DNA of 32,000 nucleotides from Ruminococcus albus 7 = DSM 20455. GTDB lineage: Bacteria > Bacillota > Clostridia > Oscillospirales > Ruminococcaceae. The translations under genes and the position numbers were made by a program. The notes under the pieces were generated by a model. It was not told the origin of the DNA and ran no database searches. It saw only the letters and a program-made list of their open reading frames with translations. Shown one piece after another: positions 1 through 28,427 of this stretch. The first letter of the stretch is position 1. Each line of letters opens with the position of its first letter. The stretch is taken from contig NC_014833.1 in NCBI RefSeq assembly GCF_000179635.2, positions 2,550,001-2,582,000 on the forward strand, in the 5' to 3' direction.

Positions 1-3000
1 CAAATAACCGCCTGTATATGCACCGTTATCTGTTGTTTTAGGAGTTATTCCGGCAAGTGCAATCGAACCGGTTTCGCATATGAAATTACCATTCATCACC
101 TTGCTGATAATAACACCGCTATATCCATTAGCGGAATTTGTTGTCTCATCAACCGTACCGTCAAGACCAAGAAATGTTCCGGCAAGCGATAAATCACCTG
201 TTACCGTTATTGCCTTGCCTGTTTCTAAATTCATAAATAATCCCGAATGCATCAGGAAATGCTGATTTACAGCACCAGGGTCACGGATATAGCTGTCACC
301 ATTGATTACATTCTCAGCAGTAGAGTAGATTCCGCTATAATCAAATGTAAGTGAAAGATCACCTATGGTATAGGTGTCAGCATTTTTTAGCGGATAGAAA
401 GAAAGACCTGTAAGATTGGCAGTTCCGCTAAAGGTTAATATACCTGTTTTAGAATCCGCAGCAATCGTTGTACCAAAGCTTTCTCCCTCGCCTTGAATGA
501 ATTCATCTGCAATATTGGAAGCAGCATACTTGCTTACACTCCACAATACCAGATTCTGTCCATAATCTGCGTTTGACATTACATCAAGATTGTAGTAGTA
601 TCTTGATTTTCCATTCGCATACTTGGCAGCATTTATAGCAGTGATATTTGTGCTGGCTGCCCTTGAAATCTGGTTCTGATATGTACCCTTGACAGTTATT
701 TTTGCTTCCGTTCCGCTTCGACTACTGTTCGTATTTACTGATACAACGCCCCCGCCGCCTGCAATCACATCACTGGCTGAATAAGCAGCAAGTTCGTCAA
801 AATCGCCTATACTATTTGGTAGTGTTATATCAGCATTCGTTAATTTATATCCGGAATTCAGAACGTCAAGATACAAGCCATCAGTGCTGTTATAAGCCTT
901 GTTGACAATTATGCCGAGTGATGTTCCGCCGCCATTAGTCATAGACATCTTTTTTATGGAAAGTGAATTTACTGTCCACTTGCCGGTGGCTACATAGCAA
1001 ATAACACCAACGTTAGCAGCAGTTTTGGATAAAACGGTATTATTGATTGAACTTGTTCCCTTTACAGTAACTCCATCAATGGTCGTAGTTGTATTCATCC
1101 AGGCATAACCAAGAAATCCACCAGCTGTTTTCTCAGCACAGTTATTAATCACACAGCCATTGAATTCTACATTTCTAACGTTTATTTTACGGTCATCATA
1201 GCTGCCATTTGAAATGATATAACCAATAAGTCCGCCGCAATCAGAATTATCACCAATAACAGTCACATTATCTACATCAGTATTCATTCCAACAGTTAAG
1301 ATATTACTGCCGCTTTGTTCTATGTTTACTATGATGCTTTCAGATGCGATTTTGCCTATAACACCTCCGTAAACCAGCCAGGTTTTATGAGAACCTGTAA
1401 ACACAAATTTAGGAGAAGCAGTAGATGTTCCTGTAATAGTAATTATTCCATTATCGGTGTTTTCATCAACATACCCAATAAAGCCGCCAATGTTCTTACC
1501 TAAATCCTCGGTGCCAGGTGAAATAGCTCCTTCATGGTAATTAACTGTCAAAGCGTTAGTCCCGCTTGCTGAAACTGTAATTGCATTAAGTGCAGTGTTT
1601 CCGTGTGAGCGAGCAGCGACAGCACCAAAGCTCATGCCGTCAGCACCCGCATTGCGAATATTGATGGTTCCGGCAATATTTAGGCTATTGACCGTACCTG
1701 TTCCTGTTGTATCGTTTCCAATTACAGAAAAGAGACCGTTATACTGATGACGATAAATTTGACCTATACCTTCATCAGTTGAAGATGAACTAATACCGAA
1801 ACCATATTTTTCTCCTGTTGCTAAGGTTATGGTATTGTTTCCGCCACTGAGTGTTCCAATGAACGTTCCTACACCGCCAATATCGGAGCTGGTTGCACTT
1901 GAAGCCGCAACGCCCTCACTGACAGTTATACCTGTACCGTCACGCATAAAACCATTGATGCCCGTTCCGGAAAGACTGAATCCACTTGAAATGGTCAGAG
2001 TTGTACCAAGAAGATACGAACGGGTATTATTGCCTGATGTAAATAATAGGCAGTTGTATCCGGAGCCTTGATTGAGCTGAATATTGAGAGCTGTTCTTAC
2101 AAAATCATCGGCATTACCCATAGATGGTTTGGCAGCAGCAATTGTTGCAGTATGATTTGTACTTGTACTGTCAAAATAAATAGCATTGGTTGAAGTGCTA
2201 TCATCAATACTGCGTACAACCTCGCCCCATGTGCCGAGATCATCTGAAATTGCTCCACTTGACCGCTTGAAAGACCAGCCGCTACCATATGAGTTGCCGT
2301 CAGAACCATTACCAAGTGCATATACAAGAACATTATCATTATAGCCTACAAGCTGTCCATAGCTTGCATAACGCAAGCCGTCAGCATCTGTGGTAGCGTA
2401 TGCACCGTTAGGCTTTGCACTTGTCATGTCCGTAATACCACTGAAACGAAGAACTCCGTTATAGAACTGTCCTACAACTCCGCCACCGTTAAAACCAGAG
2501 GTATCTGTTACCGTCAGCGTAAAGTCGCCAAGGTCAATAAAATCACCGTAACTTGCAGAAGTTGCGCCTACAAGCCCACCGAAAAATGCATAATTGTTGC
2601 AGGAAGTGCCTATGGAATCCCTGCTCTCCGTTCCACTTGCGGTTATAGCTACATTGTCAGCCTTAACATACGCAGCTACATCAATATATCCTATCGCTCC
2701 ACCAAATGCATTGAATGAGTCGTCAGAAGCTACAGAATACTCTAATTCGCTAAGTTCAAGGCTGTTTGTAAGGCTATCAGTTGTATATCTGCCAACAAGA
2801 CCGCCAAAATAACCGGTTTCGTCATATGTGTTACCTGAACCAGATGTTGCAGTCAATGTAGCGTGTCCTGAAGAAGTGGTATCTGTAATTGTAAGGGTAT
2901 TTGGTGCAGATGATACCATTTTATTTTCAAGAACACCGAAAAGACCTCCGCAATATCGCCCATAAACAGAAGCCTCGTTACTGTAATCTTTAATATCAAA

Positions 3001-4218
3001 TGTATTGCTCGCCGTTACGTTTTCATAGTAACCGAACAAACCGCCGGCACCAGCCGCACCTGTCACGCTGCCGCCGACAGGGATAGATGTTGCTGAAGAA
3101 CCTCCAACCGTAAATCCGCTATCCATATTAATTATTGCTTCTGATGTGATATTTCCGACAAGACCTCCGGAATAAGCCGAGGTCGAGACAACACTTTTGG
3201 AAGCAGATGCAGAAGACATAGCAAGAAGGTTTATTCTTGCATTACCATTCATAGAGCCTACAAGCCCGCCCGCATTACCGTAGGCAGATGTAATGCTGTA
3301 TGATGATGAGTTATCAGTATATGAGAGGTTAAGTATCGAACCGGTCTGCATTTCACCGCATATAGCGCCAACATCTGCGACATAGTAAGAATCGCTTATT
3401 GAGGCATTTGATACTACATCAGCAGCAGAACTATTCGTATATGTCAAGTTGACCTCTGTATCAGCAGTAATATCTCCAATAACACCTGAATACGTTAATG
3501 CGTTTGTGCTTACCGTTTCAACATTCCAATGTGCAGGAGTTGACGAACTATTGTTGTAAACGTGTTGAGCGAATAATGGAGCGCTCGTATCCGCACCTAC
3601 GTTTGAAAGTCTTGCAAATTGTATTTTTATTTCAGGATAGTAATATGTATCTGTATCCACGTCATGAACACGGGAATTGCTCAGAATTTTTACAGAATTA
3701 TTGACATGAGAAAACAGAGGTATCCCATATGTGCTTAAAGGGAAAGCGCCCGAACCATTATCAGGGAGAGTTATTGTTCCGTTAAAAGGATAATCATCAT
3801 TGCCAAGACCTACAAATCCCTCCGGTATCTCTCCACGTGAACCCGTATCAGAGCCAAATGTCAACGTCAAATTATCGTTTTGATGAGCATCTGCAAACTG
3901 TTTGGTGACCTGCTGAGATATAAGAGTACCTTCTTCACCTTCGGGGTCTTGTATCATTTCCTCAACAGTGATCATACAAGTATCATCGGCATAGTAAGAA
4001 CAATAGTCGATAAAATCATATGGTGTTGAAAAAGACACTTCGCCTATATTAAAGCTGTCAGCCGCAACCGCATTCGCCTTGATGGTGGAAGCTGTAAAAA
4101 TAGACGGAAGTTTTGGAAAGTGAATAGGTAGATTCATCATCTCATCAAGCGGCATAAGATTGCTCATCATAACCGTTGCAGTCAGAAAACTGACAAACCT
4201 TTTATGAAGTTTTTTCAT
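1..4218 (-). CDS. Giant secreted repeat protein; only the first 1406 codons are in the window (C-terminus off the left edge). Many GG[LFV][VIF]G GLUG-like repeat units. Candidate adhesin or terminal component of the fibre operon.
   Basis: Absent from the supplied track, apparently because it is edge-truncated. I translated the minus strand in the frame set by ATG 4218..4216 (GAGGTG 8 nt upstream): MKKLHKRFVSFLTATVMMSNLMPLDE..., which looks like a signal peptide. Spot translations of that frame at 1-60, 901-960, 2041-2100, 2461-2590 and 3661-3720 are stop-free and give AFFGGLVGAT, GFNGGGVVGQFY, MTNGGGTSLGIIVN. Every + strand track ORF in this span is <=80 aa. Confidence 0.8.
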   Translation of the reverse strand, partial: MKKLHKRFVSFLTATVMMSNLMPLDEMMNLPIHFPKLPSIFTASTIKANAVAADSFNIGEVSFSTPYDFIDYCSYYADDTCMITVEEMIQDPEGEEGTLISQQVTKQFADAHQNDNLTLTFGSDTGSRGEIPEGFVGLGNDDYPFNGTITLPDNGSGAFPLSTYGIPLFSHVNNSVKILSNSRVHDVDTDTYYYPEIKIQFARLSNVGADTSAPLFAQHVYNNSSSTPAHWNVETVSTNALTYSGVIGDITADTEVNLTYTNSSAADVVSNASISDSYYVADVGAICGEMQTGSILNLSYTDNSSSYSITSAYGNAGGLVGSMNGNARINLLAMSSASASKSVVSTSAYSGGLVGNITSEAIINMDSGFTVGGSSATSIPVGGSVTGAAGAGGLFGYYENVTASNTFDIKDYSNEASVYGRYCGGLFGVLENKMVSSAPNTLTITDTTSSGHATLTATSGSGNTYDETGYFGGLVGRYTTDSLTNSLELSELEYSVASDDSFNAFGGAIGYIDVAAYVKADNVAITASGTESRDSIGTSCNNYAFFGGLVGATSASYGDFIDLGDFTLTVTDTSGFNGGGVVGQFYNGVLRFSGITDMTSAKPNGAYATTDADGLRYASYGQLVGYNDNVLVYALGNGSDGNSYGSGWSFKRSSGAISDDLGTWGEVVRSIDDSTSTNAIYFDSTSTNHTATIAAAKPSMGNADDFVRTALNIQLNQGSGYNCLLFTSGNNTRSYLLGTTLTISSGFSLSGTGINGFMRDGTGITVSEGVAASSATSSDIGGVGTFIGTLSGGNNTITLATGEKYGFGISSSSTDEGIGQIYRHQYNGLFSVIGNDTTGTGTVNSLNIAGTINIRNAGADGMSFGAVAARSHGNTALNAITVSASGTNALTVNYHEGAISPGTEDLGKNIGGFIGYVDENTDNGIITITGTSTASPKFVFTGSHKTWLVYGGVIGKIASESIIVNIEQSGSNILTVGMNTDVDNVTVIGDNSDCGGLIGYIISNGSYDDRKINVRNVEFNGCVINNCAEKTAGGFLGYAWMNTTTTIDGVTVKGTSSINNTVLSKTAANVGVICYVATGKWTVNSLSIKKMSMTNGGGTSLGIIVNKAYNSTDGLYLDVLNSGYKLTNADITLPNSIGDFDELAAYSASDVIAGGGGVVSVNTNSSRSGTEAKITVKGTYQNQISRAASTNITAINAAKYANGKSRYYYNLDVMSNADYGQNLVLWSVSKYAASNIADEFIQGEGESFGTTIAADSKTGILTFSGTANLTGLSFYPLKNADTYTIGDLSLTFDYSGIYSTAENVINGDSYIRDPGAVNQHFLMHSGLFMNLETGKAITVTGDLSLAGTFLGLDGTVDETTNSANGYSGVIISKVMNGNFICETGSIALAGITPKTTDNGAYTGGYL

Positions 4219-4236
4219 TATCTGTTCACCTCACAA

Positions 4237-5328
4237 TCATGATGAAGAATTCTCACTATGAAATTCGCAATCAATAAAGTTAGATGCACTATTTGTTCCA
4301 ATGTACTGTGTTTCGCCATCAACTTTATATAACTGTATTTGGTATCTGTTTATATCAGTGGAGTCAACCATTAATGTTACCATTTTCCAGTTTGCACGAG
4401 TAGCGTTCTTGATTATAGAACCCGTTTCAGCAGCTTCACCATTGCTGTCATAAAGAACAAATTCGTTTCCTGACAGCTCACTAAAGAAGAACTCGTTTAT
4501 CTCAAATTTGGTTGAATCCCACATTATGTCTACCGTTCCGACACCGCTTCCGGTTAAAACATAATTATAAAAATCATAAGACACACTTGAACAATCATCT
4601 GACTCAACCAGTTCTCCTGTCCATGAAGCAGCTTCCGCTGTACTTTCAGCAGTTCCGAAATAGTTACTAAGAGTTGTATGTAAAGATGCAGGGGACGAAG
4701 GAACTGCCTCAACATAAATATAGAACTCAGGTTCGGTCTTTTCTTGTTCAGCATCATCAAGAATTATCTTGAATGAATCAGTAGAGCTTACCGTCCCTTT
4801 AAGAGCGCAATTGGTGGTAAACGTTGTACTATAATCTGACTCTGTAACAAGGTTGATGGCATCACCGAGACCAGTTGCATTCTCATCGTCTTTTATGAAT
4901 TGGATGGAATAGGTTCTCTGCTCGTTAGTCCCTAATTTCAACTTAGAAATGTAGTCTGCTTTATCAGCCCCTGTGTACTCTGAAAGTTTTACAAAATCAT
5001 TACCGTTTTTTATTGCTAAAGATGCATTCAAAGTATAGGTGATATTATCAGGATTTACTTCTAAGGCATTTTCCTGAGCAAAATTACAAACTGTAATAGT
5101 ATATGCCGTTGAGGATAGTCGCTGAGAAGTTGCTGATGATTTCAAAGAATTAGATGAAAACATCACACTGTCTGCCGGTCTTGTGGAAACTACACGTTTT
5201 ACAGAATTAACACCGGTATATGATGCAAAGACCACGAAAACACTTACAGCAAACAACGTACTAACAAGCCATACCAGTGCCCAATGCTTTTTCAGCCGTT
5301 TCTTAATGCTTTCAAAGTTTACTTTCAT
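4237..5328 (-). CDS. Fibre-locus paralog (363 aa): signal-anchored, beta-rich, Ser/Thr/Asn-rich exported protein (putative minor subunit)
   Basis: Track ORF with ATG start. The N-terminus has a basic stretch, then a hydrophobic helix ending VFASYTGVNS, the same position as the FAWFT-type motif in the paralogs. Tightly packed in the same-strand operon. No LPXTG at the C-terminus. Confidence 0.7.
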   Translation of the reverse strand: MKVNFESIKKRLKKHWALVWLVSTLFAVSVFVVFASYTGVNSVKRVVSTRPADSVMFSSNSLKSSATSQRLSSTAYTITVCNFAQENALEVNPDNITYTLNASLAIKNGNDFVKLSEYTGADKADYISKLKLGTNEQRTYSIQFIKDDENATGLGDAINLVTESDYSTTFTTNCALKGTVSSTDSFKIILDDAEQEKTEPEFYIYVEAVPSSPASLHTTLSNYFGTAESTAEAASWTGELVESDDCSSVSYDFYNYVLTGSGVGTVDIMWDSTKFEINEFFFSELSGNEFVLYDSNGEAAETGSIIKNATRANWKMVTLMVDSTDINRYQIQLYKVDGETQYIGTNSASNFIDCEFHSENSSS

Positions 5329-5361
5329 GATCTCATCCCTTTCTATAACTTGATTTCACTT

Positions 5362-6141
5362 TTATTCGGTGGTTCGGCTGGCTGTAATGTAAATGATGTC
5401 TGTTTCTTTATTATTTGATGCTGCATTCCATTTGGTAAAGTTCGTAGAGGAGCTTTCAGAAGCCCAACCTATTTCCAAAATATAAAAGTCGTGATTAACG
5501 TCCCGTGTTTCTAATTCCTGAACCTGTGAATATATTGGAACTGCATATATCTCAGGCTTATCATTTCCGTCATAAACAAGGTCATAAAAATCATCACCTT
5601 TTAGCCCAAGTATTCTTCCATAGTAATCCTCGTTATCCTCATCAGGATTCAAATCAACTAAATCTAAAGGTTCGGCTACCGTTTTTCCAGATTCAATGGT
5701 TCTTTTATAGTTTACGGTTTTATCTCCAACAGGTGATTCATAAGTAACAATATCCGTATCAGATGCCAATGCTTCTTCTGCTCTGTATAGAGTATATGTG
5801 AAAGGAATATTTGTAGTATGAGCAAGCTGAATATCGTAATATGTTTTTGAATTTCCTGTTATTACACCAAATACATAACATTGTGGTTTCCCCGTCTTCT
5901 GAATATTCTCCAGGTCGATGTTACTAAGCTCAAAATATTCAACAGTATCACCATCACCGGCACATAAGTCAAGGCTGGGTGGCTCTTGAACTTTCGTCAT
6001 TGTTTCGATTTTACTTGTATATGAAAGCCACGCATAGACAGGTACTGCTACCATAAGAAAAAGGGTAGCAACAGCGGCAATGGCGGCTTGAATCTTCTGT
6101 GCAGTTGTAAGTTTATTGATAAATTCCTTCATTTGGTTCAT
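5362..6141 (-). CDS. Fibre-locus paralog (~259 aa) with a SipW-type-like N-terminal signal/anchor (…VPVYAWLSYTSK)
   Basis: The track ORF starts at GTG 6150, but AAGGAGGTG followed by 6 nt and ATG at 6141 is the better start (MNQMKEFINKL…). Hydrophobic helix followed by YAWLSYT. Same operon. Confidence 0.7.
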   Translation of the reverse strand: MNQMKEFINKLTTAQKIQAAIAAVATLFLMVAVPVYAWLSYTSKIETMTKVQEPPSLDLCAGDGDTVEYFELSNIDLENIQKTGKPQCYVFGVITGNSKTYYDIQLAHTTNIPFTYTLYRAEEALASDTDIVTYESPVGDKTVNYKRTIESGKTVAEPLDLVDLNPDEDNEDYYGRILGLKGDDFYDLVYDGNDKPEIYAVPIYSQVQELETRDVNHDFYILEIGWASESSSTNFTKWNAASNNKETDIIYITASRTTE

Positions 6142-6154
6142 CAAAGCCACCTCC

Positions 6155-7144
6155 TTATGATACGGAGACTGTCATCGACAATAATAGATAACGTACTCTC
6201 GCACCTATGATGTTATCAGCTTGATTGTATCTTCCTCCGTAATATAGGTAGTTACTGTTAATATCTGATATAGACACATTGTCAGCAGTTGTAATGCCTT
6301 TCATAAAGTATTGTGGATTATCTTCGATATAATCAAGAAAATCGCTATCATCACAAAATGGGTATGTAACTTCAACATCTTCATTAAGAACATCATCGTG
6401 TTCTGTGACGGTGTGCGTATTCAGCAGATCGCTAAAGTTGTTTACCCAAACCCAATAGATATTTACGGGGATTGTTGTATCTTTACCCGTGTACGTCTTA
6501 TCTGAAAGAAGTCGGCTTAATGAAGTAGTATTCTTTATTAGTCCTGAGTATGTATCCGTAGCCAGATCATAATCTTCAAATAAAAGAATATGACCATTCA
6601 GATAATTGATGACATCAGCATCATTGGTTGAATCAAGCTGTACCATTGATGTTATATTATTCTCCGTTACGGGATTATAACCTATCAATTCAAATGAAAA
6701 GTCTAAATCAACCGAACTTACTCTCGGCGTAACATAGAAAGTTACATAACCTCTGCAATCAGGGTGAATACCGTCATCTTCAACGCCTGTAATTGAGTGA
6801 TAGTTGCCTATATTCTGTTCCAGACCGTTGGAGTCAGTGCCGTTCATCTTCCATATGATTGCTGTATCATCGTGTACTAAATCAAGATAATCATCATATA
6901 CACCATTATTTCCATTGGTAAGTACTGAGATCTCATATTCCGGACCCTTTATAGATACTTTCATACCGCTTGCCGAGTTTTCAGAATTATTTGTAAACCA
7001 AGCTATCGAGGAAAAAATCAGCATAATAGTGCTTAAAACAAGCATAGCTCCCATTTTTATAAGAGCTGCCTTTTGCATTTTCTTACGCTCCAACAATTCC
7101 TCAGAGGCAGAATCCGCAAGATTTATATTATTCTTTTCATTCAT
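6155..7144 (-). CDS. Fibre-locus paralog (~329 aa) with N-terminal anchor …SSIAWFTNNSENSASGMKVSIKG; paralog of the next gene upstream
   Basis: The track ORF starts at ATG 7165 (TAATG overlap with the upstream stop). An internal ATG at 7144 is preceded by GAGGTGGGG at good spacing. It shares NGHILLF, Y.GLI.N, IYWVW and YIEDNPQYF motifs with the 339-aa neighbour. Confidence 0.7.
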   Translation of the reverse strand: MNEKNNINLADSASEELLERKKMQKAALIKMGAMLVLSTIMLIFSSIAWFTNNSENSASGMKVSIKGPEYEISVLTNGNNGVYDDYLDLVHDDTAIIWKMNGTDSNGLEQNIGNYHSITGVEDDGIHPDCRGYVTFYVTPRVSSVDLDFSFELIGYNPVTENNITSMVQLDSTNDADVINYLNGHILLFEDYDLATDTYSGLIKNTTSLSRLLSDKTYTGKDTTIPVNIYWVWVNNFSDLLNTHTVTEHDDVLNEDVEVTYPFCDDSDFLDYIEDNPQYFMKGITTADNVSISDINSNYLYYGGRYNQADNIIGARVRYLLLSMTVSVS

Positions 7145-7164
7145 CTGCCCCACCTCGCTTATCA

Positions 7165-8184
7165 TTACTCGGCATAAGTGCGAACGTTAAATCCGAAGTA
7201 TTTTGTATTTTCAATAATCAGCTTATCGCCGTTATCGTAATAATCGCTTAGAATGTCATAGTCGGTCATTTCCGTTCCGTCGGGAATTGCTCCGATTTCT
7301 GCGGTACACAGGAACTCGTCAGGATTGTTCTTGATATATTCAAGCATTTCAGCCTGTTGGTCGCTGTTATCAAACAACGCTCCGTCAGCCTGAGTATTGA
7401 CTAATTGCTCATAATATTCTGCCCATATCCAATAGACCTTTATCTTGTATTCTCCGCTGGCGTTCAGATCGTCCATGTGTTCGCTTGTGCGGTATATCAT
7501 TTCGCCGTTTTCAATCAGACCGCTGTACTTTCCGTTGCAATTTTCCCTAAAGAAAAGGATATGACCGTTCAACAGCTCGTCAATATTGTCAAGACATTTA
7601 CGTTCGGTAGTGTCAGAACAATCCACCTCTGACATCTTCACCAAGCTGCCGTCTGCAAGCTCCGTAACAGCAAACACATCATATGTAATATGAATAGAGA
7701 GGTCGGCATCTGCTTTCTTAGGCTTGATATAAAATGTGGTAGAGCCATAGGAGCCGGGGAGCGTGACCGATCTGCCGTCCTCCTGTTTCAGATACATAGC
7801 TGTGTTGCGGTTGAAAGCAGATGTTTTCAGGCTATCGGAATAACCGTTATCCTGCATAAACTTTGAGACTTCTTCATTGGTGTTCGCTTCAAAATCTTCA
7901 TCAACACGCATTTCATAGTAGTCCGATCTCATAGGCATAAAGAAATCAGATATAGCTTCTTTCGGAGAAGTTATCTTACCGCCCGAATGTTTGACTGCGA
8001 TTAGGTACATTGTGAATAATATCAAAAGGACTATGCTGATAAATGACATTAGAGGTGACAGCGAACCCTCCACCTCGATCAGCCGACTATCCTCGGCTTT
8101 ATATTCCTCCGAAAACTCATAATCATCATCTGATATTTTCCTTGATTTGGTATGCCGAAAATGAGATTTTCTTTTCATACGCAA
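7165..8184 (-). CDS. Fibre-locus paralog (339 aa): long basic cytoplasmic N-tail, one TM helix, then a beta-rich ectodomain. It has no clear AWFT-type motif, so it may stay membrane-anchored.
   Basis: Track ORF. Start is TTG 8184 (GAAAGG 5 nt upstream) or ATG 8178. TM segment LMSFISIVLLILFTMYLIAV. Motifs NGHILFF, YSGLIENG, IKVYWIWAEYY and YIKNNPDEF are shared with the 336-aa paralog. Confidence 0.7.
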   Translation of the reverse strand: MRMKRKSHFRHTKSRKISDDDYEFSEEYKAEDSRLIEVEGSLSPLMSFISIVLLILFTMYLIAVKHSGGKITSPKEAISDFFMPMRSDYYEMRVDEDFEANTNEEVSKFMQDNGYSDSLKTSAFNRNTAMYLKQEDGRSVTLPGSYGSTTFYIKPKKADADLSIHITYDVFAVTELADGSLVKMSEVDCSDTTERKCLDNIDELLNGHILFFRENCNGKYSGLIENGEMIYRTSEHMDDLNASGEYKIKVYWIWAEYYEQLVNTQADGALFDNSDQQAEMLEYIKNNPDEFLCTAEIGAIPDGTEMTDYDILSDYYDNGDKLIIENTKYFGFNVRTYAE

Positions 8185-8249
8185 TCGAACCTTTCACGAT
8201 ATTTTCTCAGGTCAAATTGCGATATAATTATTATACTACTTCACTATAT

Positions 8250-8278
8250 ATTATATCACAAAACGCCTTGTGTTTCAA
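8250..8278 (-). promoter_or_regulatory. Internal sigma-A-type promoter for the minor-subunit genes
   Basis: The minus strand reads TTGAAA-17 nt-TATAAT (TTGAAA = revcomp of 8273-8278; TATAAT = revcomp of 8250-8255). It lies between the hairpin at 8331-8359 and the start at 8184. Confidence 0.55.
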
Positions 8279-8330
8279 TAGTATAGGCGTAGATTTTACC
8301 CGATTTTCACTTATTCCTGTTATGAAGTAA

Positions 8331-8359
8331 ACCCGCCGAGCATTAGCTGTCCGGCGGGT
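8331..8359 (-). terminator. Terminator-like hairpin immediately downstream of the putative major subunit gene
   Basis: The minus strand reads AACCCGCCG-13 nt loop-CGGCGGGTT, a 9-bp GC-rich stem, followed by a weak U-tract (TTTACTTC). It could be a partial (attenuating) terminator. Confidence 0.5.
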
Positions 8360-8407
8360 TAAGTATTCTATCAGAGTAGATCAGTTTTGTATTTAGCCTT
8401 GACAGCT

Positions 8408-9499
8408 TTACTTAAGACCGAATACGATCTCAACAGTCAATTCATCAAGATCAGAATAAATATTATCAGTATTACAGTTAGAGTCTTCGCCCTCAAACCA
8501 AATGTATACATCAATTTTTGCACCATCAGATGTTGTAGCCGGAAGAGTCGCAAGGCTTAAACCATCAGTAGTATTCGATGCAGTAGTTGCAGTCCAAGTG
8601 GATACAGCTGATGTTCCTGTCAAATCAAGTCCTGCTGTTCCAGTTGCCAACGATGCCGCTGCACTTGTTACTGCCTTTGTAGAAGTATCATATGCAGACG
8701 CTATAAAATAACTACTATCAGCACCAGCAACTGGAGCAAACGTCAATGCACTACCGCCAGTAGGCAACACAGCAACACGGAGAGTTTTATCTAAGTCGTG
8801 TGCAAGAGCATCTCCGTCTGTATTCTTATCCAGTCCGCTTACCTTTATTTCCTTTACATAAAGGGTATCATCACCATCGTTAGTCAAATCTGCATTGAGT
8901 GTTATTGCGTTAGAAGAAGACGACTTAACATAGTAAGTATACTTGATAAATGCTCCATCATCATTATCGCCTATTGCAGCCGCCGTACCATCTTTTTCCT
9001 TGTAGTAGATATTTGCTTCTGCATCCGTTCCAGCTGCCGCAGCAGTCGCCTGTATAAAATCAAGTTTTCCACTCGAAAGATTATTTCCACCAGCAGTAGT
9101 TGCTAAAGTGAAAATTTCATAACCAGCACTGCTAAGTTTATCACTTTTAGTATTAGCTGCGGTTCCTTTTGCCGATGCGTTAGCGGCAACGCTGTTAGCA
9201 TGAGCCCATGTTGACATATCTGCACTGGACATAGGAATAAGTGTTGCACCAGCATTAGCTGTACTCTTAGCCTCTTCATCCCAATTGGTATCGCCCGAAG
9301 TTGCTACTTCATTGATAAGCAAGCCTTTCTCAGCCTTTGCCTTGACTTCCATACCTGTCACCTGAACTTCTTTGTTCATTGTGAACCATGCGAACGTACT
9401 TGTCGCCAGCATTGTAGCGGAGATCATGAGCATTCCGGCAGCGGGAATGAGCTTCTTCATAGGAGAGCTGCCCTTTGTATTCTTAGTATTAGCTTTCAT
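8408..9499 (-). CDS. Putative major fibre subunit (363 aa): Ala/Thr/Ser/Gly-rich, acidic, with a SipW-cognate-type signal peptide (…MLATSTFA|WFTMNKEV)
   Basis: Track ORF with ATG and a GAAAGGAA RBS. It is the first full gene after a perfect consensus promoter and is followed by a hairpin. The N-terminus resembles the G-T-[LW]-A-[YA]-F-[TN]-D class known from TasA/CalY. C-terminal motifs LRVAV and IDVYIWFEGEDSNCNTD…LTVEIVF are shared with the 239-aa protein at 11294-12013. Confidence 0.8.
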   Translation of the reverse strand: MKANTKNTKGSSPMKKLIPAAGMLMISATMLATSTFAWFTMNKEVQVTGMEVKAKAEKGLLINEVATSGDTNWDEEAKSTANAGATLIPMSSADMSTWAHANSVAANASAKGTAANTKSDKLSSAGYEIFTLATTAGGNNLSSGKLDFIQATAAAAGTDAEANIYYKEKDGTAAAIGDNDDGAFIKYTYYVKSSSSNAITLNADLTNDGDDTLYVKEIKVSGLDKNTDGDALAHDLDKTLRVAVLPTGGSALTFAPVAGADSSYFIASAYDTSTKAVTSAAASLATGTAGLDLTGTSAVSTWTATTASNTTDGLSLATLPATTSDGAKIDVYIWFEGEDSNCNTDNIYSDLDELTVEIVFGLK

Positions 9500-17348: not shown

Positions 17349-17775
17349 AATGATCACAGCACTGATACTCTGGATCATCACGCTGATAGCACTTCTGGTG
17401 TTTATAGGATTATATATCGATGAAACAAGACGAGTTCAGGAAACCTACAGAAAACAGTACAAGACCGAGCTTACCCACGCAGTAAAGGAGATAGACTCCT
17501 ATCTTGAAAATAAAGGCGACACAGCACTGCGTTACAAGCGCATAACCAGCTACGTCACCTGTGCAAGCTCTTACGCTTTCCTGATAGAAAACAGTTTTGA
17601 CAAGCAGCAGAAGGTCATCAACGAAGTGAACACCTGCATGATAAAATATCCCGAGCAGATGAGCACCAGGCTGGAGGAGCTGAAACAGGCTTTCGATGAT
17701 ATCGGCGCAGACCTTGACAAGGGCTACGAAGAAGCGCAGGCTGTTGTGGATTCTGTAAACAAAAAAGGTAACTAG
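17320..17775 (+). CDS. Small N-terminally membrane-anchored protein (151 aa), function unknown
   Basis: ATG with GAGGTG 7 nt upstream. It overlaps the end of the 989-aa gene by 29 nt, which suggests translational coupling. TM ITALILWIITLIALLVFIGLYI. Confidence 0.65.
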   Translation: MNQEKILKRRMITALILWIITLIALLVFIGLYIDETRRVQETYRKQYKTELTHAVKEIDSYLENKGDTALRYKRITSYVTCASSYAFLIENSFDKQQKVINEVNTCMIKYPEQMSTRLEELKQAFDDIGADLDKGYEEAQAVVDSVNKKGN

Positions 17776-17788
17776 GGAGTGGTCAACA

Positions 17789-18013
17789 ATGAATGAAAAA
17801 AGAAAGCTGAAACGAGAGATCAAGATCTGCCGTCAGACTATCGAGGAGATAGAACGAAAGCGTTCAAGATCACAGTCAGCGCTGGTACAGGCAGTGCTTC
17901 TGCAGGAAGAACCCGACGAGAACGATGTCGAGTGGTTCAACAAGTACACAGGCGAGATCACAGCCTGCAGAAATCACATGATAGAATTGCAGAAAAAACT
18001 GAATTCGCTGTAA
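17789..18013 (+). CDS. Small basic coiled-coil protein (74 aa), function unknown; last gene of the operon
   Basis: GGGAGTGG RBS. Lys/Arg/Glu-rich helical sequence. A terminator follows directly. Confidence 0.55.
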   Translation: MNEKRKLKREIKICRQTIEEIERKRSRSQSALVQAVLLQEEPDENDVEWFNKYTGEITACRNHMIELQKKLNSL

Positions 18014-18024
18014 AAAAAGAAATA

Positions 18025-18051
18025 ACCGCAGTCCCGATCAGGGGCTGCGGT
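18025..18051. terminator. Bidirectional intrinsic terminator between convergent operons
   Basis: ACCGCAGTCCC-GATCA-GGGGCTGCGGT forms an 11-bp stem. T-rich runs lie on both sides (TGTTGTTTTA on +, TTATTTCTTTTTTT on -). Confidence 0.8.
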
Positions 18052-18057
18052 GTTGTT

Positions 18058-19698
18058 TTATCTGATCTCTGCACCTGATATTCGGTGCATACGTTGTTTT
18101 TCTTCGTACATGGCTTGATCAGCGCGTGAAAGTATCTGCTCGTAGCTCTCATCACCCTCGGTATACGAGGAATGACCTATGGCGATACTCAGTGAGAAGC
18201 TTTCTTCATAGGCGAAAGCTCCGTACTCATCACGTTCGGAATTCATCCTGTCCATAAGACTCTGGAGCTCATCGTTAAGCTTTTCAAGATCCTCCTCAGT
18301 CTTATCCTTCAGCAGTGCTATGAATTCATCACCGCCCACTCTGTAAACATTGGCGAAAACAGTGCTCATACACTTGGCTGCCGAACGCAGCAGCGTATCA
18401 CCGCCAAGATGACCGAAGCAGTCATTGGTAGGCTTCAGCAGATTAAGATCCATTGAAACCACGCTCATCTCTTCAAGTGGTATTATGCCTGCATCTCTTT
18501 CAAGTGCATACCTGTTTCCAAGACCCGTCAGCTGATCTGTGTACGCCAGTATCTCCAGCAGCTGATCCTCACGCTTACGGCTCATCTCGTTCATCAGCTT
18601 GCGTATGCCGTTCACCAGCTCGAAAGCAAGATACATTATGAAGCCTATCCTTACTATGAACGTCTGATCACCCAGTGTAGTCACGAATATAAAGAATATC
18701 GCATTGGCAAAAGAGAAGCCCAGCAGTATCAGTATACCCAGCCTGTTTATGGGGTCTATCAGTTTCAGACGCTTCACATTTACAGCAAAGGTTATGAATG
18801 ACATCACGCCCAGCGAGGTGATGAACACCTTGACAGTTTCAGTATATGTGGCTACACCTGTAAAGTGCAGCACAGATAGTATGACCTCCAGCCCTGCAAA
18901 TGTAAAGAACAGCCAGCCCAGCTTCAGCGTAGGCACTATGTCCTCAAAATACAGCATGGCTGCAAGCGGCACCATGAAGATCATGAAATAGTTCATGTAG
19001 TATTGCATGATTGGATTGCCGAAAATGTACTGATTGAAAAACAGCGGACAATTAACGTATAACGCAAACAGTATCGAAAGCGAACCCAGCGAAAAAGCCT
19101 CGGGAGCTTCTATCTTCTTGAAAGTACATATCACGTGTATGACCAACAGCAATACACCGAATATACCCATGATGACATTGATCGTGTACAGCTCGAACTC
19201 GTCTTTGAGATAGCTGTATATCAGCTCATTCTCAGCACCGATACGTATCCTGTAACTCGGCATATATTCGCTGCGGAATACTGTATCAACAGTGATGTTG
19301 ATGTATTTGCCTCCGTTTTCCGGAATATAGATAAAGTGAGTATAGGTACCCGGTGAACAGCCAAAGACAGGTTTTTCACCAAAATGATAAATGGCTTCCC
19401 CGCTAAGGTCGCCTGCTGTATCACTTATATCTGCATCAACAAATGAATCATACGTACGAAAAGAAAGGGATTTACCCCTGACATCATCAGTTATCTCATG
19501 GCTCATAATAAGACGAAGGATCGTTCTTCCATCCTCACCTTCATACTCATAATGCTCATAAGTCCAGTCCGTATCATAATGATCAACCTTCCCAGAACCC
19601 ACAGGAACACTGTCATTTAACTTAAAAGCAAGTATCAGCACCACTACCGTTATTATAAAGAGATATAGACCTATATACCTCTTTTCAAGCAGTTTCAT
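18058..19698 (-). CDS. Multi-TM sensor diguanylate cyclase (546 aa): N-terminal anchor, ~170-aa extracytoplasmic domain, ~7 TM helices, GGDEF domain
   Basis: AAGGAGA RBS. The C-terminal region reads LAYTDQLTGLGNRYALERD … DLNLLKPTNDCFGHLGGDTLL … YRVGGDEFIALL, so the GGDEF motif is intact. No RxxD I-site lies 5 residues upstream. The layout resembles 7TMR-DISM-type receptors. Confidence 0.85.
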   Translation of the reverse strand: MKLLEKRYIGLYLFIITVVVLILAFKLNDSVPVGSGKVDHYDTDWTYEHYEYEGEDGRTILRLIMSHEITDDVRGKSLSFRTYDSFVDADISDTAGDLSGEAIYHFGEKPVFGCSPGTYTHFIYIPENGGKYINITVDTVFRSEYMPSYRIRIGAENELIYSYLKDEFELYTINVIMGIFGVLLLVIHVICTFKKIEAPEAFSLGSLSILFALYVNCPLFFNQYIFGNPIMQYYMNYFMIFMVPLAAMLYFEDIVPTLKLGWLFFTFAGLEVILSVLHFTGVATYTETVKVFITSLGVMSFITFAVNVKRLKLIDPINRLGILILLGFSFANAIFFIFVTTLGDQTFIVRIGFIMYLAFELVNGIRKLMNEMSRKREDQLLEILAYTDQLTGLGNRYALERDAGIIPLEEMSVVSMDLNLLKPTNDCFGHLGGDTLLRSAAKCMSTVFANVYRVGGDEFIALLKDKTEEDLEKLNDELQSLMDRMNSERDEYGAFAYEESFSLSIAIGHSSYTEGDESYEQILSRADQAMYEEKQRMHRISGAEIR

Positions 19699-22564: not shown

Positions 22565-24322
22565 TTATTCCGCCGCAAACTGCGAATTATAAAGCTCGCT
22601 GTAAAAGCCGCCTTTTGCGATAAGGCTTTCGTGAGTGCCCTGTTCGACGATATGACCCGAGCGCATAACAATGATATTCTCGGCTTCCTTGATTGTAGAA
22701 AGTCGGTGGGCGATGATGAAGCTTGTCCTGCCCTTCATCATCTCAGCGAAGGCACGCTGTATCATTATCTCGGTACGGGTATCGATTGAAGATGTAGCCT
22801 CATCAAGTATAAGCATAGGAGGCAGGGACAGCATGACCCTTGCGATACACAGAAGCTGCTTCTGCCCCTGTGAGAGCGTGCTGAAAGCATCGGATACAAC
22901 AGTATCATAGCCCTTTGGCAGACGCTTTATGAATCCGTGGCAGTGGGCTGACTTTGCAGCGGCTATGACTTCTTCCTCGGTGGCATCCGGCTTGCCGTAA
23001 CGGATATTATCACGTATGGAAGCAGTTTTCAGCCATGTTTCCTGCAGCACCATACCGTACATTGAACGCATGGAATCGCGTGTACAGTTCTTTATGGGCT
23101 TGCCGCTTATGTTTATGCTGCCGCTGTCTGCATCGTAAAAGCGCATCAGCAGATTTATCATGGTTGTCTTTCCGCAGCCCGTAGGGCCTACTATGGCAGT
23201 GCGTTCACCTGCCCTGACGTGCAGGTTGAAATCCTCGATAAGCTTGACTTCGGGGTCATAGCTGAAATATACGTGCTCGGCATCCACACTCCCGTCAACT
23301 TTGGTGAGTACTTCGGCATCGGGGTCATCGGGTATCTCTTCCCTTTCGTCGATAAGCTCGAATACCCTTCCTGCTGATGCAAGTGCACTCTGGAGTTCGG
23401 TGATAACGCCTGATATCTCATTGAATGGCTTGGTATACTGATTAGCATACGACAGAAAAGCCGACAGCGCTCCCACAGTGAAGCTTCCGCCGCTGAATAC
23501 CGTAAGTGCACCGAGTATACCGACAGATGTGTACACAAGACCGTTTACAAATCTTGTACAGGGATTTGTCAGTGAGGAGAAGAATATCGCCTTGACACTG
23601 ACCGCCTGCAGTTTTTTGTTGTACACATCGAACTGTTCTTCGGCTTCATCCTCGTAGCTGAAAGCCTGTACAGTTTTAAGATTTCCTGTTATCTCCTCAA
23701 CAAGCGCGGTCATCTCACCGCGGGCTACTGACTGCTTGTGAAAAAGGTCAAAGGTGTTCTTCGCTATGAACCTTGCCACAAACAGCGAAAGCGGTGTCAG
23801 CAGTATTACCACAAGAGATATCTTCACGTTTATGGAAAGCATGAATATTATAGTACCAATAATTGTACATATACCCGTGAAGAGCTGTGCAAACCCCATG
23901 AGCAGACCGTCGGATATCTGGTCTATATCAGTGATGATACGGCTGATTATATCACCGTGAGGGTGTGCATCTATATAGGAGAGAGGCAGACGTGACAGCT
24001 TAGAGAATGCCTTGCGGCGTATATCTCTCACCACATTGAAGGTTATCTTGTTGGTGCACAGTGACATGAGCCACTGTGATACTGCTGTTATGGATACTGT
24101 CACACAAAGCTTCACAAGCACAGGAGTCAGTGCTTTGATATCAACATTTCCCTTGCCTATTATAAGGTCAACACACTGTCCTATAAGTATCGGAGCATAA
24201 AGAGTAGTCGCCACAGTTATAAGGGCTAGCAGCATTGATATGCCGAATAGTCCCCTATACGGTCTTGCATAGGCAAGGAGCGGTTTCAGTACAGATTTTT
24301 GTACTTTATCAGCTTTAGCCAA
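22565..24322 (-). CDS. ABC exporter permease/ATPase half-transporter (585 aa), the chain with a consensus NBD but a degenerate signature
   Basis: Six-TM N-domain. Walker A GPTGCGKTT, signature LSQGQKQ (instead of LSGGQ), Walker B LILDEATS, H-loop IAHRLST. Confidence 0.9.
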   Translation of the reverse strand: MAKADKVQKSVLKPLLAYARPYRGLFGISMLLALITVATTLYAPILIGQCVDLIIGKGNVDIKALTPVLVKLCVTVSITAVSQWLMSLCTNKITFNVVRDIRRKAFSKLSRLPLSYIDAHPHGDIISRIITDIDQISDGLLMGFAQLFTGICTIIGTIIFMLSINVKISLVVILLTPLSLFVARFIAKNTFDLFHKQSVARGEMTALVEEITGNLKTVQAFSYEDEAEEQFDVYNKKLQAVSVKAIFFSSLTNPCTRFVNGLVYTSVGILGALTVFSGGSFTVGALSAFLSYANQYTKPFNEISGVITELQSALASAGRVFELIDEREEIPDDPDAEVLTKVDGSVDAEHVYFSYDPEVKLIEDFNLHVRAGERTAIVGPTGCGKTTMINLLMRFYDADSGSINISGKPIKNCTRDSMRSMYGMVLQETWLKTASIRDNIRYGKPDATEEEVIAAAKSAHCHGFIKRLPKGYDTVVSDAFSTLSQGQKQLLCIARVMLSLPPMLILDEATSSIDTRTEIMIQRAFAEMMKGRTSFIIAHRLSTIKEAENIIVMRSGHIVEQGTHESLIAKGGFYSELYNSQFAAE

Positions 24323-26066
24323 TCTCCTTCACCTCCTCCTCGGAAAGCTGTGACAGGCATATCTCACGGTATACATCACATGAGTTACAAAGCTCTTTGT
24401 GGGTGCCTATGCCTGCTATCTTTCCGTCATCAAGTACTATTATCTTATCAACGTTCTTTATGGAGGATATCCTCTGTGATACAATGAATACCGTCATATC
24501 CCCTGTCTTATCGGAAAGTGCTTTTCTCAGCCTTGCTTCGGTGGCAAGGTCAAGTGCGGACGCTGAGTCATCGAGCATTACTATCTCGGGTGAACCGACG
24601 AATGCCCTTGCTATGGTAAGGCGCTGACGCTGTCCGCCCGAAAGGTTCTTGCCCTCCTGCATTATCATCTCGTCCAGCTTATCGGGCTTTTCCATAACGA
24701 AATCATAAGCCTGTGCAAGTTTCAGGGCGGATATTATCTCCTCATCATCTGCGGAGCTGTCACGCCATTTCATATTATCTCGGACAGTACCCTTGAAAAG
24801 CACTGCACGCTGTGGTACTATACCTATCTTGCCCCTTAGCTGTGCGAATGGGTACTCTTTAACGTCAACTCCGTCGATAAGCACCTGACCCTTTGAAGCA
24901 TCATAGAATCTCGGGATAAGGTTTACCACCGAGGATTTGCCCGAACCTGTACCACCGATTATGCCAACAGTCTCTCCCCTGTTCACGGTAAAGCTGATAT
25001 CCTCAAGGGCGTACTCCTCGCTGTCATGGTAAGAGAAGCTCACTCCGCGGAATTCCACCGCAGGTGCTGAGGTATCTGCTGTTACATCGGTATTTCCCTC
25101 ATCGCTGACAGTAGGTCCGATATCAAAAATATCATTTATACGTATGGCTGAAGCCTGCATCTTGGTGATATTCGTGACGAGTATCGCCATAGCGAGAAGT
25201 GCCAGAAGTATCTGGTTCATATAGTTCACAAGGGCTATGACATCGCCCTGAGTAATAACGTCGTTATACACCTGATGCGCACTCGCCTTTAAAAGTACGG
25301 CTATGCCCAGGTTCACGATGACGTAAGTCATGGGGTTCATAAGGGCATTTATCCTGCCAGCCTTTATCTGCAGGTCGGCAAGTTCATCGGTGAGCTTTTC
25401 AAACTCATTTTCTTCTGACTTCTGTGCAGAAAAAGCACGTATCACCCTTGCACCCGAAAGTGCTTCTCCTGTCAGCAGATTAGTGCGGTCAAGGGTCTTC
25501 TGGATATTCTTGTAGCGCGGTATGGTGATGCTCATTATCTTATAGATAACAAAAGCAAGACATGGGGCTATTACAAGGAATATAAGCGTGAGCTTCACCG
25601 ATATGGCGAATGCCATTATCACCGCACCCACCACGATGAAGGGCGAACGCAGGAGAAGTCTGAGCAGTATATTCACACCGGATTGGGCGGTATTGATATC
25701 CGCAGTCATACGTGTAACAAGTGTACTGCTGCCGACCTTGTCTATCTCGGAATAGGAAAGCCTGTTGATATGGCGCAGCAGATCGGTGCGCAGTGCGGTG
25801 CCGAATCCGACGGAAGCCTTTGCCGCAAAATACTGTGCCGTAAGGGAACAGGCAAGCCCCAGGAATCCCAGCAGCACCATGATAGCGCCCATACGGAGTA
25901 TATACGGCACATCCTCATTCTTTATACCGATATCTATTATACGCTTCATGACCACAGGTACGGCAAGCTCGAAGCAAGCTTCGATAAGCTTGAAGAGAGG
26001 TCCTATAAAACTCTCCTTTTTATAGTTTTTAAGATAGCGAAACAGTTTGAACATATTTTTCTCCAA
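24315..26066 (-). CDS. ABC exporter permease/ATPase half-transporter (583 aa), the chain with degenerate catalytic residues
   Basis: It overlaps the downstream partner by 8 nt. Walker A GGTGSGKSS, signature LSGGQRQR, Walker B VMLDDSAS (Asp replaces the catalytic Glu), H-loop IVSQRISS (Gln replaces His). Confidence 0.9.
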   Translation of the reverse strand: MEKNMFKLFRYLKNYKKESFIGPLFKLIEACFELAVPVVMKRIIDIGIKNEDVPYILRMGAIMVLLGFLGLACSLTAQYFAAKASVGFGTALRTDLLRHINRLSYSEIDKVGSSTLVTRMTADINTAQSGVNILLRLLLRSPFIVVGAVIMAFAISVKLTLIFLVIAPCLAFVIYKIMSITIPRYKNIQKTLDRTNLLTGEALSGARVIRAFSAQKSEENEFEKLTDELADLQIKAGRINALMNPMTYVIVNLGIAVLLKASAHQVYNDVITQGDVIALVNYMNQILLALLAMAILVTNITKMQASAIRINDIFDIGPTVSDEGNTDVTADTSAPAVEFRGVSFSYHDSEEYALEDISFTVNRGETVGIIGGTGSGKSSVVNLIPRFYDASKGQVLIDGVDVKEYPFAQLRGKIGIVPQRAVLFKGTVRDNMKWRDSSADDEEIISALKLAQAYDFVMEKPDKLDEMIMQEGKNLSGGQRQRLTIARAFVGSPEIVMLDDSASALDLATEARLRKALSDKTGDMTVFIVSQRISSIKNVDKIIVLDDGKIAGIGTHKELCNSCDVYREICLSQLSEEEVKEIG

Positions 26067-28361: not shown

Positions 28362-28398
28362 GGTATTTTCTCCTATCGTATATAATAAGCTATTATAT

Positions 28399-28427
28399 AT
28401 TATAGTACACTGTGACGAAATTGTCAA
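28399..28427 (-). promoter_or_regulatory. Perfect consensus sigma-A promoter of ppk1
   Basis: The minus strand reads TTGACA (revcomp of 28422-28427)-17 nt-TATAAT (revcomp of 28399-28404). Confidence 0.7.

Follow-up and report, generated by a model that had tools for sequence, protein, structure and literature searches.

A CoCoPALM-type locus of Ruminococcus albus 7 joins an McrB-like GTPase to SipW-type signal peptidases and their putative surface substrates

In Bacillus, SipW is encoded together with its substrates in the tapA-sipW-tasA and sipW-tasA-calY operons (PMC9674648, PMC10151520), and TasA forms donor-strand fibres (PMC9674648). A clostridial SipW-dependent secreted polymer is that of the sipW-bsaA system of Clostridium perfringens, for which type IV pilus-associated proteins have been proposed to help BsaA oligomers cross the wall (PMC11580942). 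Escherichia coli McrBC (PDB 6HZ4, 6UT6) combines an McrB-family AAA+ GTPase with an adjacent McrC-N (DUF2357) activator domain. Signal peptidases and McrB-like GTPases are brought together in the class named CoCoPALM by Bell et al. (eLife, 2024; PMC11090510), to which that paper gives two sentences, deferring analysis to a later one: its members have NxD-motif McrB GTPases with a transmembrane and coiled-coil N-terminus and are linked to signal peptidases. Here we describe a locus that belongs to this class, named yet uncharacterised experimentally, in Ruminococcus albus 7 (DSM 20455). It lies in a stretch of 32,000 nucleotides (NC_014833.1, positions 2,550,001 to 2,582,000 of a chromosome of 3,685,408 bp) that matches the GenBank proteins of the strain; we refer to the whole stretch as the window and give all coordinates within it.

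The assignment rests on a membrane-anchored NxD GTPase, a nuclease-less DUF2357 partner (an McrC homolog) with a coiled-coil-like region, the association of both with signal peptidases, and the Bacillota hosts, all of which agree with what Bell et al. say of CoCoPALM. A first-pass annotation, made from the letters alone, had read the locus as a TasA-like fibre system and could not match its combination of genes to any described system. The association of the nucleoside triphosphatase (NTPase) with SipW and cyclic di-GMP (c-di-GMP) genes turns out to be conserved, as it had supposed; the subunits are not TasA-like, and the combination already has a name, if little more, since we found no follow-up paper on CoCoPALM and two supplementary files of PMC11090510 carry no mention of the class. 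Beyond the two sentences of Bell et al., the locus and its relatives have substrates with a characteristic AWF leader, an anchored subunit-like protein (F), paired and seemingly active SipW paralogs, a degenerate EAL protein as first gene, an McrC-N::SipW fusion and a hypervariable subunit. None of these, the fusion being a feature of some Ruminococcus, is found in the passages that Bell et al. devote to the class, nor are the apparently invertible silent cassettes described below. We consider it highly probable that the locus encodes a CoCoPALM-type, SipW-dependent surface system. That the system makes a polymer we hold to be probable, with appreciable room for doubt, and a mechanical coupling of GTP hydrolysis to cleavage or assembly is offered tentatively, as the less likely side of that question. 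Taken as a whole, a conserved fibre- or pilus-type surface system working by the mechanism proposed below is the explanation that we favour, with moderate confidence.

The evidence that carries this reading is the conservation of the gene cluster. Among 1.84 billion representative proteins scanned with HMMER, 8168 proved related to the NTPase (769 at E <= 1e-30). A separate scan of one genome per species confirmed at least 573 relatives, which makes the system common in gut and rumen Firmicutes. Locus counts in what follows cover 83 loci (numbered L001 onwards), namely the best 80 of these at least 573 relatives (>= 50% NTPase identity) and those of three R. albus strains. Their hosts are Ruminococcus, Acutalibacteraceae, Christensenellales, metagenome-assembled genomes (MAGs) labelled Lachnospiraceae, and MAGs of Bacilli or 'Tenericutes'. 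The NTPase adjoins a DUF2357 partner and SipW genes in all 83, F is present in 67, and the usual gene order is (degenerate EAL)-F-(one or more AWF-leader subunits)-SipW-NTPase-McrC-N-SipW. Open reading frames (ORFs) carrying the leader motif [STGA][FYW]AW[FLVI][STAGQ] number 77 and occur in 58 of the loci, as against a single match in 373,000 other residues. The first-pass annotation had proposed that its reading would fall if NTPase/McrC-N pairs usually occurred without SipW substrates nearby; this co-occurrence test has now been run, and they do not. The recurrence of the arrangement in 83/83 related loci indicates that the association is genuine and the pair integral to the SipW-substrate cluster.

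A variant order, SipW(n)-NTPase-McrC-N-SipW-F-E, is found in the Bacilli-type loci. Eleven such Bacilli/'Tenericutes' loci (L049-L053, L059, L064, L069, L074, L075, L079) have an McrC-N protein of about 370 aa without the long coiled coil and three to five SipW copies, with F and E following the machinery genes; they seem to represent a sub-architecture of their own within the system. The fusion of McrC-N to SipW is present in the window, L001-L004, L007, L010, L011 and L016, while most relatives encode the two as adjacent genes. By its distribution, the fusion is a recent event limited to some Ruminococcus, and, as Rosetta-stone evidence, the alternation between fused and adjacent genes implies that McrC-N and SipW work together.

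The machinery is encoded on the forward strand, where the relevant genes are:

11294-12013, + strand: protein F, 239 aa (ADU22763), the sixth signal-anchored protein and candidate fibre base or anchor
12032-12703, + strand: SipW-type signal peptidase I paralog 1, 223 aa (ADU22764; TIGR02228, 94.1 bits)
12736-14316, + strand: membrane-anchored McrB-like NxD-clade GTPase, 526 aa (ADU22765), assigned by alignment to McrB structures
14379-17348, + strand: McrC-N::SipW fusion, 989 aa, with DUF2357 at residues 68-167 and the SipW domain at residues 772-951

The 526-aa NTPase matches McrB weakly but specifically (NCBIfam E = 0.0017; PDB 6HZ4 E = 0.004), and its AAA+ core aligns along the E. coli McrB structures, with GISGTGKTS as Walker A. 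The signature N367-x-D369 is invariant among 44 diverse homologs; the top representatives have N-x-D-[DE], and QDE, RDE and KDE forms among them exclude an NxxD reading. Thus the window protein has NxD where E. coli McrB has NxxD, and it differs further in that a membrane anchor replaces the DNA-binding N-domain. A strongly hydrophobic transmembrane segment at residues 62-80 precedes basic residues, which places the GTPase domain in the cytoplasm, and a heptad-like charged stretch; 53 of 58 relatives with a short N-terminus likewise have a transmembrane segment there. In the class as defined by Bell et al. the GTPase is fused to an FtsB-like N-terminal domain with a transmembrane segment and a coiled coil; here homology to FtsB found no significant support, the Pfam DivIC/FtsB model matching residues 84-117 at E = 2.7.

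In the fusion protein, DUF2357 (McrC-N) is matched at E = 1e-7 and a SipW domain (TIGR02228, 88.1 bits) forms the C-terminus. Between them lie three segments rich in E, K, R and Q (379-500, 540-590 and 624-670) that are coiled-coil-like by composition, the fraction of these four residues reaching 0.5-0.8 over residues 379-500 and 540-670. DUF2357 was also detected in 22 of 30 homologous McrC-N partners. Family scans found no nuclease in the fusion or in those 30 partners, and no DNA-binding or other nucleic-acid-binding family in the proteins of the window, so that neither mark of canonical McrBC, the PD-(D/E)xK nuclease of McrC and the DNA-binding N-domain of McrB, is seen here. A coiled coil and a signal peptidase stand in place of the nuclease, and nothing indicates a nucleic-acid target; the core architecture to be expected from E. 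coli McrBC would nevertheless be a hexamer with McrC inserted in its pore. Residues 602-620 of the fusion (VYVIPRFITYLLVIWFGII) are hydrophobic, lie between two highly charged stretches and precede the SipW transmembrane helix. If they span the membrane, the peptidase domain would come to lie within the cell; more probably the segment is re-entrant or peripheral to the membrane. Where McrC-N is a protein of its own, as in relatives, the equivalent segment sits close to its C-terminus.

Both SipW domains (94.1 and 88.1 bits) exceed the cutoff of 51.85 bits of TIGR02228, as signal peptidases I of the ER/archaeal (Sec11, Ser-His) type, and the first protein has transmembrane segments at its N- and C-termini. 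The equivalog model of Bacillus SipW, NF046067, scores them at 109 and 97 bits, under its cutoff of 190, and the two are therefore not orthologs of Bacillus SipW. Because the catalytic Ser (S-M-x-P) and His are kept throughout the relatives (59/59 upstream and 62/62 downstream paralogs), both are probably active peptidases.

Their putative substrates are encoded beside them, chiefly in a divergent operon on the reverse strand:

8408-9499, - strand: protein E, 363 aa (ADU22760), candidate major subunit; leader ...MLATSTFA/WFTMNKE, the slash marking the predicted cut
7165-8184, - strand: protein D, 339 aa, paralog of C with a transmembrane anchor and no AWF motif
6155-7165, - strand: protein C, 336 aa, candidate minor subunit; leader SIAWFT
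5362-6150, - strand: protein B, 262 aa, signal-anchored; leader motif VYAWLS
4237-5328, - strand: protein A, 363 aa, signal-anchored accessory protein
1..4218, - strand: giant secreted repeat protein, >1406 aa, its C-terminus lying beyond the window; candidate fibre-associated adhesin

The leader is of the SipW-cognate class, with a small residue at -1 and then aromatic-F-polar, and UniRef labels F and an E homolog with the term 'SipW-cognate class signal peptide'. Across the E family A-W-F is invariant and followed by [ST]-M-N, a C-terminal W-x-E-G-x-D-x-x-C is conserved, and the middles are hypervariable. Conserved ends around a hypervariable middle would fit polymer interfaces combined with exposed variable surfaces. 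Tandem arrays of two to four subunit paralogs occur in L026 and L060. The exact E sequence is deposited under two R. albus accessions, ADU22760.1 and ADU24359.1, from which it follows that R. albus 7 should have a further identical copy, either at another place in its genome or on one of its plasmids.

The first-pass annotation called the six signal-anchored proteins paralogous, and by sequence this holds for E, F, C and D. The E-family hidden Markov model (HMM) matches C near its N-terminus, over residues 28-96 (1e-13), and F over its C-terminal half (3e-13), and C and D match each other by BLASTP at 1e-12; A and B resemble the others only in having an N-terminus of the signal-anchor style, which in A is a transmembrane segment at residues 17-35 followed by FASYTG. 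The sole homolog of A among the loci is in L018, within the same E-C/D-B-A order; B has a homolog there too (38% identity), and C has homologs in L018 and L013. The N-terminus of the giant protein resembles a signal peptide; the protein contains the repeat GG[LAVI][VFIL]G ten times, and Pfam gave no match for it. Homologs of it (29-31% identity) adjoin the system in L013, L018 and L010: the order E-C/D-B-A-giant of the window recurs in L018, and in L013 a C-like gene is followed by the giant homolog.

Are these subunits relatives of TasA? The 'TasA-like' label of the first-pass annotation is apt for the SipW peptidases and for the leader, T-[FY]-A-W-F-[ST], and fails for the mature subunits, for which neither sequence nor fold gave a match. 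The hhalign register sets T-Y-A-W-F-T opposite T-W-A/A-F-N of TasA, whose mature start at A28 is confirmed by the 100% identity of the TasA sequence to PDB 8AUR, and the alignment covers the signal peptide only, at a probability of 1.5%. Proteins A to F have no match to Peptidase_M73 or to any other Pfam or NCBIfam family, and neither the E sequence nor the E-family profile found anything among PDB sequences. That the proteins are 'beta-rich' was examined by AlphaFold for E and F. The E model (predicted local distance difference test score, pLDDT, 85.3; predicted template modelling score, pTM, 0.83) is all-beta and ordered except for residues 34-41, which surround the predicted cleavage site. 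Foldseek returned no match to it at E <= 1e-3, and TasA was outside the top 50. TasA homology is thus rejected in four ways: family HMMs, PDB profile, Foldseek and hhalign.

F is of a different kind. Its transmembrane segment (29-47) continues in the model as a helix into the first strand (pLDDT 70), and in 55 of 69 family members it is followed by G-x-F-T-[VIL], the residues before F-T not being small; in the absence of a small residue at -1, F would remain uncleaved. The best Foldseek match of the F model is the archaeal bundling pilin AbpA (7UEG; probability 0.97, E = 2.8e-3), other top matches being a PapG pilin domain, the Sulfolobus thread subunit 7PNB and the CS20 pilin. The best matches are thus consistently donor-strand pilins, each below usual significance. 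The F model, like that of E, was built on shallow alignments from protein searches, which probably limited the quality of the F model. A conserved cytoplasmic RRTAxEVK motif in F was considered and dropped as a general feature, only 21 of 69 family members having it.

Set against the systems described above, the locus shares with the Bacillus operons the encoding of SipW with its substrates and a leader that ends in T-aromatic-A and continues with aromatic-F-polar, and TapA, an anchored or nucleating accessory (PMC10151520), is a plausible analogue of F. It differs from those operons in its subunits, which are not TasA or camelysin homologs by profile or fold search, in having a pair of SipW paralogs at each locus, and in its module of GTPase and McrC-N and its c-di-GMP genes. 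The BsaA system is, as proposed here, a clostridial SipW-dependent secreted polymer; it is assembled through intermolecular isopeptide bonds, from an operon without an McrBC-like module or an EAL gene (PMC11580942). Donor-strand pilins (AbpA 7UEG, Sulfolobus threads 7PNB, chaperone-usher pilins) are the best, if weak, fold matches of the F ectodomain; E, in contrast, matches none of them, and those systems are not known to have an NTPase at the membrane. In its proposed logic the locus resembles type IV pili and archaella, in which surface filaments are built from membrane-held precursors with the help of an NTPase in the cytoplasm and a leader peptidase of their own. In these machineries, too, regulation by c-di-GMP is common. 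However, the protein families are unrelated, PilB/PilT ATPases and aspartic prepilin peptidases corresponding to an McrB-like GTPase and Ser/His SipW here, and their class III leaders and alpha-helical subunit N-termini differ from the Sec-type leader and all-beta subunits of the present system.

The major subunit varies in a manner that suggests strong selection by phage or host. In the R. albus loci L001-L003 the NTPase is 100% identical to that of the window and the mature subunits are unrelated (408-428 aa vs 363 aa), alike only in the leader; these loci are also without the module of A-D and the giant protein. Synteny breaks exactly at the leader/mature junction, at position 9868 of the window relative to L001 and at 9641 relative to L002, and past the breakpoint at 9868 the first leader of L001 runs in frame into a full subunit. 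The corresponding region of the window is the intergenic hub from which the two operons diverge, 9500-10479 (980 bp), noted as AT-rich in the first-pass annotation and indeed of GC content 0.333 as against 0.43 for the whole window. It holds two outward-facing promoters that match the sigma-70 consensus perfectly (12/12), and two short leader ORFs:

10096..10068, - strand: left (subunit) operon promoter, sigma-70-type; TTGACA, 17 nt, TATAAT; 12/12
10414..10442, + strand: right (machinery) operon promoter, sigma-70-type; 12/12
9867..9971, - strand: truncated leader ORF 1, MKANTKNKK...MLATST-stop
9640..9747, - strand: truncated leader ORF 2, only the subunit signal peptide, a stop preceding [FY]AWFT

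The leader-only ORFs sit between the promoter and E and end in MLATST or MLSTST and a stop where [FY]AWFT is expected. Each has a GAAAGGA resembling a ribosome-binding site and belongs, with the true 5' end of E, to a direct-repeat family of 224-248 bp; elsewhere such ORFs were found only in R. albus-type loci (L002, L003). They may be recombination scars or regulatory upstream ORFs. The spacers after them showed no strong RNA structure (folding z-scores of -0.4 to -1.9), on which ground an attenuator was rejected. For the 570-nt subunit leader, a riboswitch or any other RNA already described was likewise rejected: comparison of the whole window with Rfam at its gathering thresholds gave no match, nor did a search of the hub at E <= 1.

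Relatives offer a possible route for this variation. L019 and L002 contain leaderless subunit cassettes in inverted orientation relative to the expressed gene, with which their 5' ends form inverted repeats (16688-16727 / 21190-21229 in L019, 40 nt, 95%; 4305-4396 / 6683-6774 in L002, 92 nt, 77%) that lie at the leader/mature junction and encode YAWFTMS[RK]EVE. Beside the L002 cassette stand two genes for large serine recombinases (647-2680 and 2673-4271). The arrangement looks like a shufflon-type inversion switch providing antigenic variation of the major subunit. The window itself revealed no silent subunit cassette, a six-frame motif scan finding only E, C and B.

Two further genes tie the locus to c-di-GMP:

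10480-11238, + strand: degenerate stand-alone EAL protein, 252 aa (ADU22762; PF00563, E = 2.9e-31)
18058-19698, - strand: polytopic membrane GGDEF protein, 546 aa (PF00990, E = 4.6e-23)

The first-pass annotation took the EAL protein to be degenerate, and comparison with the active EAL domain of Bd1971 bears this out: E is replaced by Q, N by Y, DD by MD, K by M, EGVE by DGIS and Q by A. The catalytic Lys is missing in 43 of 43 members of the first-gene family. Having lost most of its catalytic residues, the protein is not a phosphodiesterase; it is a candidate c-di-GMP sensor rather than an enzyme. It is encoded directly upstream of F in 38 of the 62 loci with enough upstream sequence, some c-di-GMP gene is present in 49 of 83, and large EAL or GGDEF genes lie near the system in 16, so the suspected link to c-di-GMP recurs. 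The GGDEF gene converges on the end of the right operon, again as first described, and its GGDEF motif is intact (...YRVGGDEFIALL); with about eight hydrophobic segments and the active-site motif GG[DE]EF, the protein is a predicted diguanylate cyclase.

How might such a machine work? In the scheme that we favour, Sec would insert the subunits and the leader would hold them in the membrane. SipW would then cut after T-[FY]-A, at the position aligned with the TasA cleavage site, and the freed N-terminus, WF[ST]M..., would serve as a donor-strand linker. F, with a subunit-like ectodomain and no small residue at -1, would keep its membrane position as base, anchor or terminator, a terminator logic resembling that of PapH in P pili. 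An McrB-like hexamer, activated by McrC-N, would work by way of the coiled coil upon the second SipW, which in R. albus is fused to McrC-N, so that GTP hydrolysis in the cytoplasm might gate or drive an assembly, or an extrusion through the wall, that is coupled to cleavage; McrBC would thereby have exchanged its nuclease effector for a peptidase. The degenerate EAL protein could read the c-di-GMP that the neighbouring GGDEF cyclase would produce and switch the machine or the operon on or off, and A-D with the giant repeat protein may constitute a strain-specific accessory or tip-adhesin module of R. albus 7. It is tempting to go further and see an NTP-driven pilus machine of monoderm bacteria, derived from a restriction motor, in which the GTPase gates SipW, subunits of novel fold polymerise on a membrane base, c-di-GMP exerts control and shufflon-like switching supplies variation; in so complete a form, we think the picture unlikely to be right in every part.

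Several observations weigh against a GTP-driven fibre. To our knowledge, the SipW-dependent fibres already described (TasA, BsaA) need no NTPase, and we know of none in any Bacillus tasA-type operon, so that an energy requirement would not be expected. The nearest characterised or predicted relatives of the NTPase are restriction and defence systems, and it matches a PADLOC defence candidate family, PDC-M26A, at 2.8e-39. Polymerisation of E, as judged from its model, lacks fold support, there being no PDB match; the pilin matches of F are weak (E 2.8e-3 to 2e-2, TM-scores of 0.27-0.44, model pLDDT 70); and the hydrophobic segment at 602-620 makes the topology of the fusion uncertain. On the regulatory side, the GGDEF neighbour is kept at this position only within R. 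albus (L001-L003), and residues of the degenerate EAL protein related to c-di-GMP binding are only partly conserved.

The alternative that survives best, though unlikely in our estimate, is an apparatus for processing and displaying monomeric surface proteins, in which SipW trims leaders, the GTPase acts as a checkpoint or quality control, sensing for example GTP or the energy level, and E, C, B and the giant protein are monomeric adhesins or wall-associated proteins that form no fibre. The E fold, which matches neither TasA nor known pilins, is what such an apparatus would predict, as is an E model that is a complete monomer except for 8 residues; the want of subunit homology in A and B and the presence of a giant adhesin-like repeat protein in the module point the same way. 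It accommodates less easily the conservation of W-F-[ST]-M-N and W-x-E-G-x-D-x-x-C against hypervariable middles, which is the pattern to be expected of polymer interfaces with variable surfaces exposed, the fact that F is a membrane-anchored copy of the subunit C-terminal domain with donor-strand pilins as its top fold matches, and the tandem subunit arrays of L026 and L060.

Less probable again, and by a clear step, is a conflict or defence system in which the McrBC-derived module senses infection and acts through the peptidases, by shedding or blocking a fibre that serves as phage receptor or by abortive infection through deregulated signal-peptide cleavage. The NxD clade of McrB would suit it, since other branches, the CoCoNuTs, are predicted defence systems where Bell et al. 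treat them (PMC11090510), and so would the PADLOC match and a major subunit that is hypervariable and, in relatives, phase-variable, as might be expected of a surface structure exposed to phage. However, neither a nuclease nor a nucleic-acid-binding domain was found in the GTPase or the 30 McrC-N partners, the GTPase carries a membrane anchor at its N-terminus, the module keeps tight synteny with genes for secreted subunits and for c-di-GMP, and the right operon and its right flank (GGDEF and ABC transporter genes) are conserved in R. albus, unlike a defence island. A chance adjacency, in one genome, of an McrBC-like restriction remnant and a SipW-substrate cluster has nothing in its favour except the novelty of the pairing and can be dismissed, as the arrangement is kept across several Firmicutes orders and a gene fusion joins the two modules.

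If the fibre reading is right, the locus would represent a surface-filament pathway unlike sortase-assembled pili, type IV pili, chaperone-usher pili, curli or TasA, and the first McrBC-type GTPase to act on a membrane protease rather than a nuclease. Its hosts include the cellulolytic species R. albus and Ruminococcus flavefaciens, in which adhesion to plant fibre is central. The class is both widespread and mechanistically surprising, and R. albus 7 can be cultivated. We found no relevant literature on this locus in R. albus, and in the C. perfringens paper the sole mention of McrB is in the genotype of an E. coli strain (PMC11580942).

Every gene named in the first-pass annotation was recovered at its position by ORF listing and HMM scans. 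The deposited proteins ADU22760 and ADU22762-ADU22765 match those of the window exactly; the fusion gene corresponds to ADU22766, deposited as 983 aa, the 989-aa reading starting from a GTG further upstream, and the exact 989-aa sequence is recorded in Logan assemblies only. The remaining features at the right end of the system are:

17320-17775, + strand: 151-aa protein with a transmembrane segment (11-29) and helices
17789-18013, + strand: 74-aa charged helical ORF, the final gene of the right operon, a gene call also made in L001-L003
18025-18051, either strand: GC-rich hairpin with an 11-bp stem (8 GC pairs) and a T-tail, between converging genes

A family scan gave no significant match for the 151-aa protein, which is kept with the system in 19 loci of the Ruminococcus group. 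The hairpin, judging from its sequence and position, is likely to be a bidirectional terminator. Beyond the GGDEF gene lie two ATP-binding cassette (ABC) exporter genes on the reverse strand (22565-26066), each with a membrane domain fused to an ATPase domain. Because the same ABC genes flank the system in other R. albus strains, the GGDEF gene marks its right-hand boundary. They are followed by a polyphosphate kinase with four PPK domains (26139-28427, reverse strand), an ordinary flanking gene.

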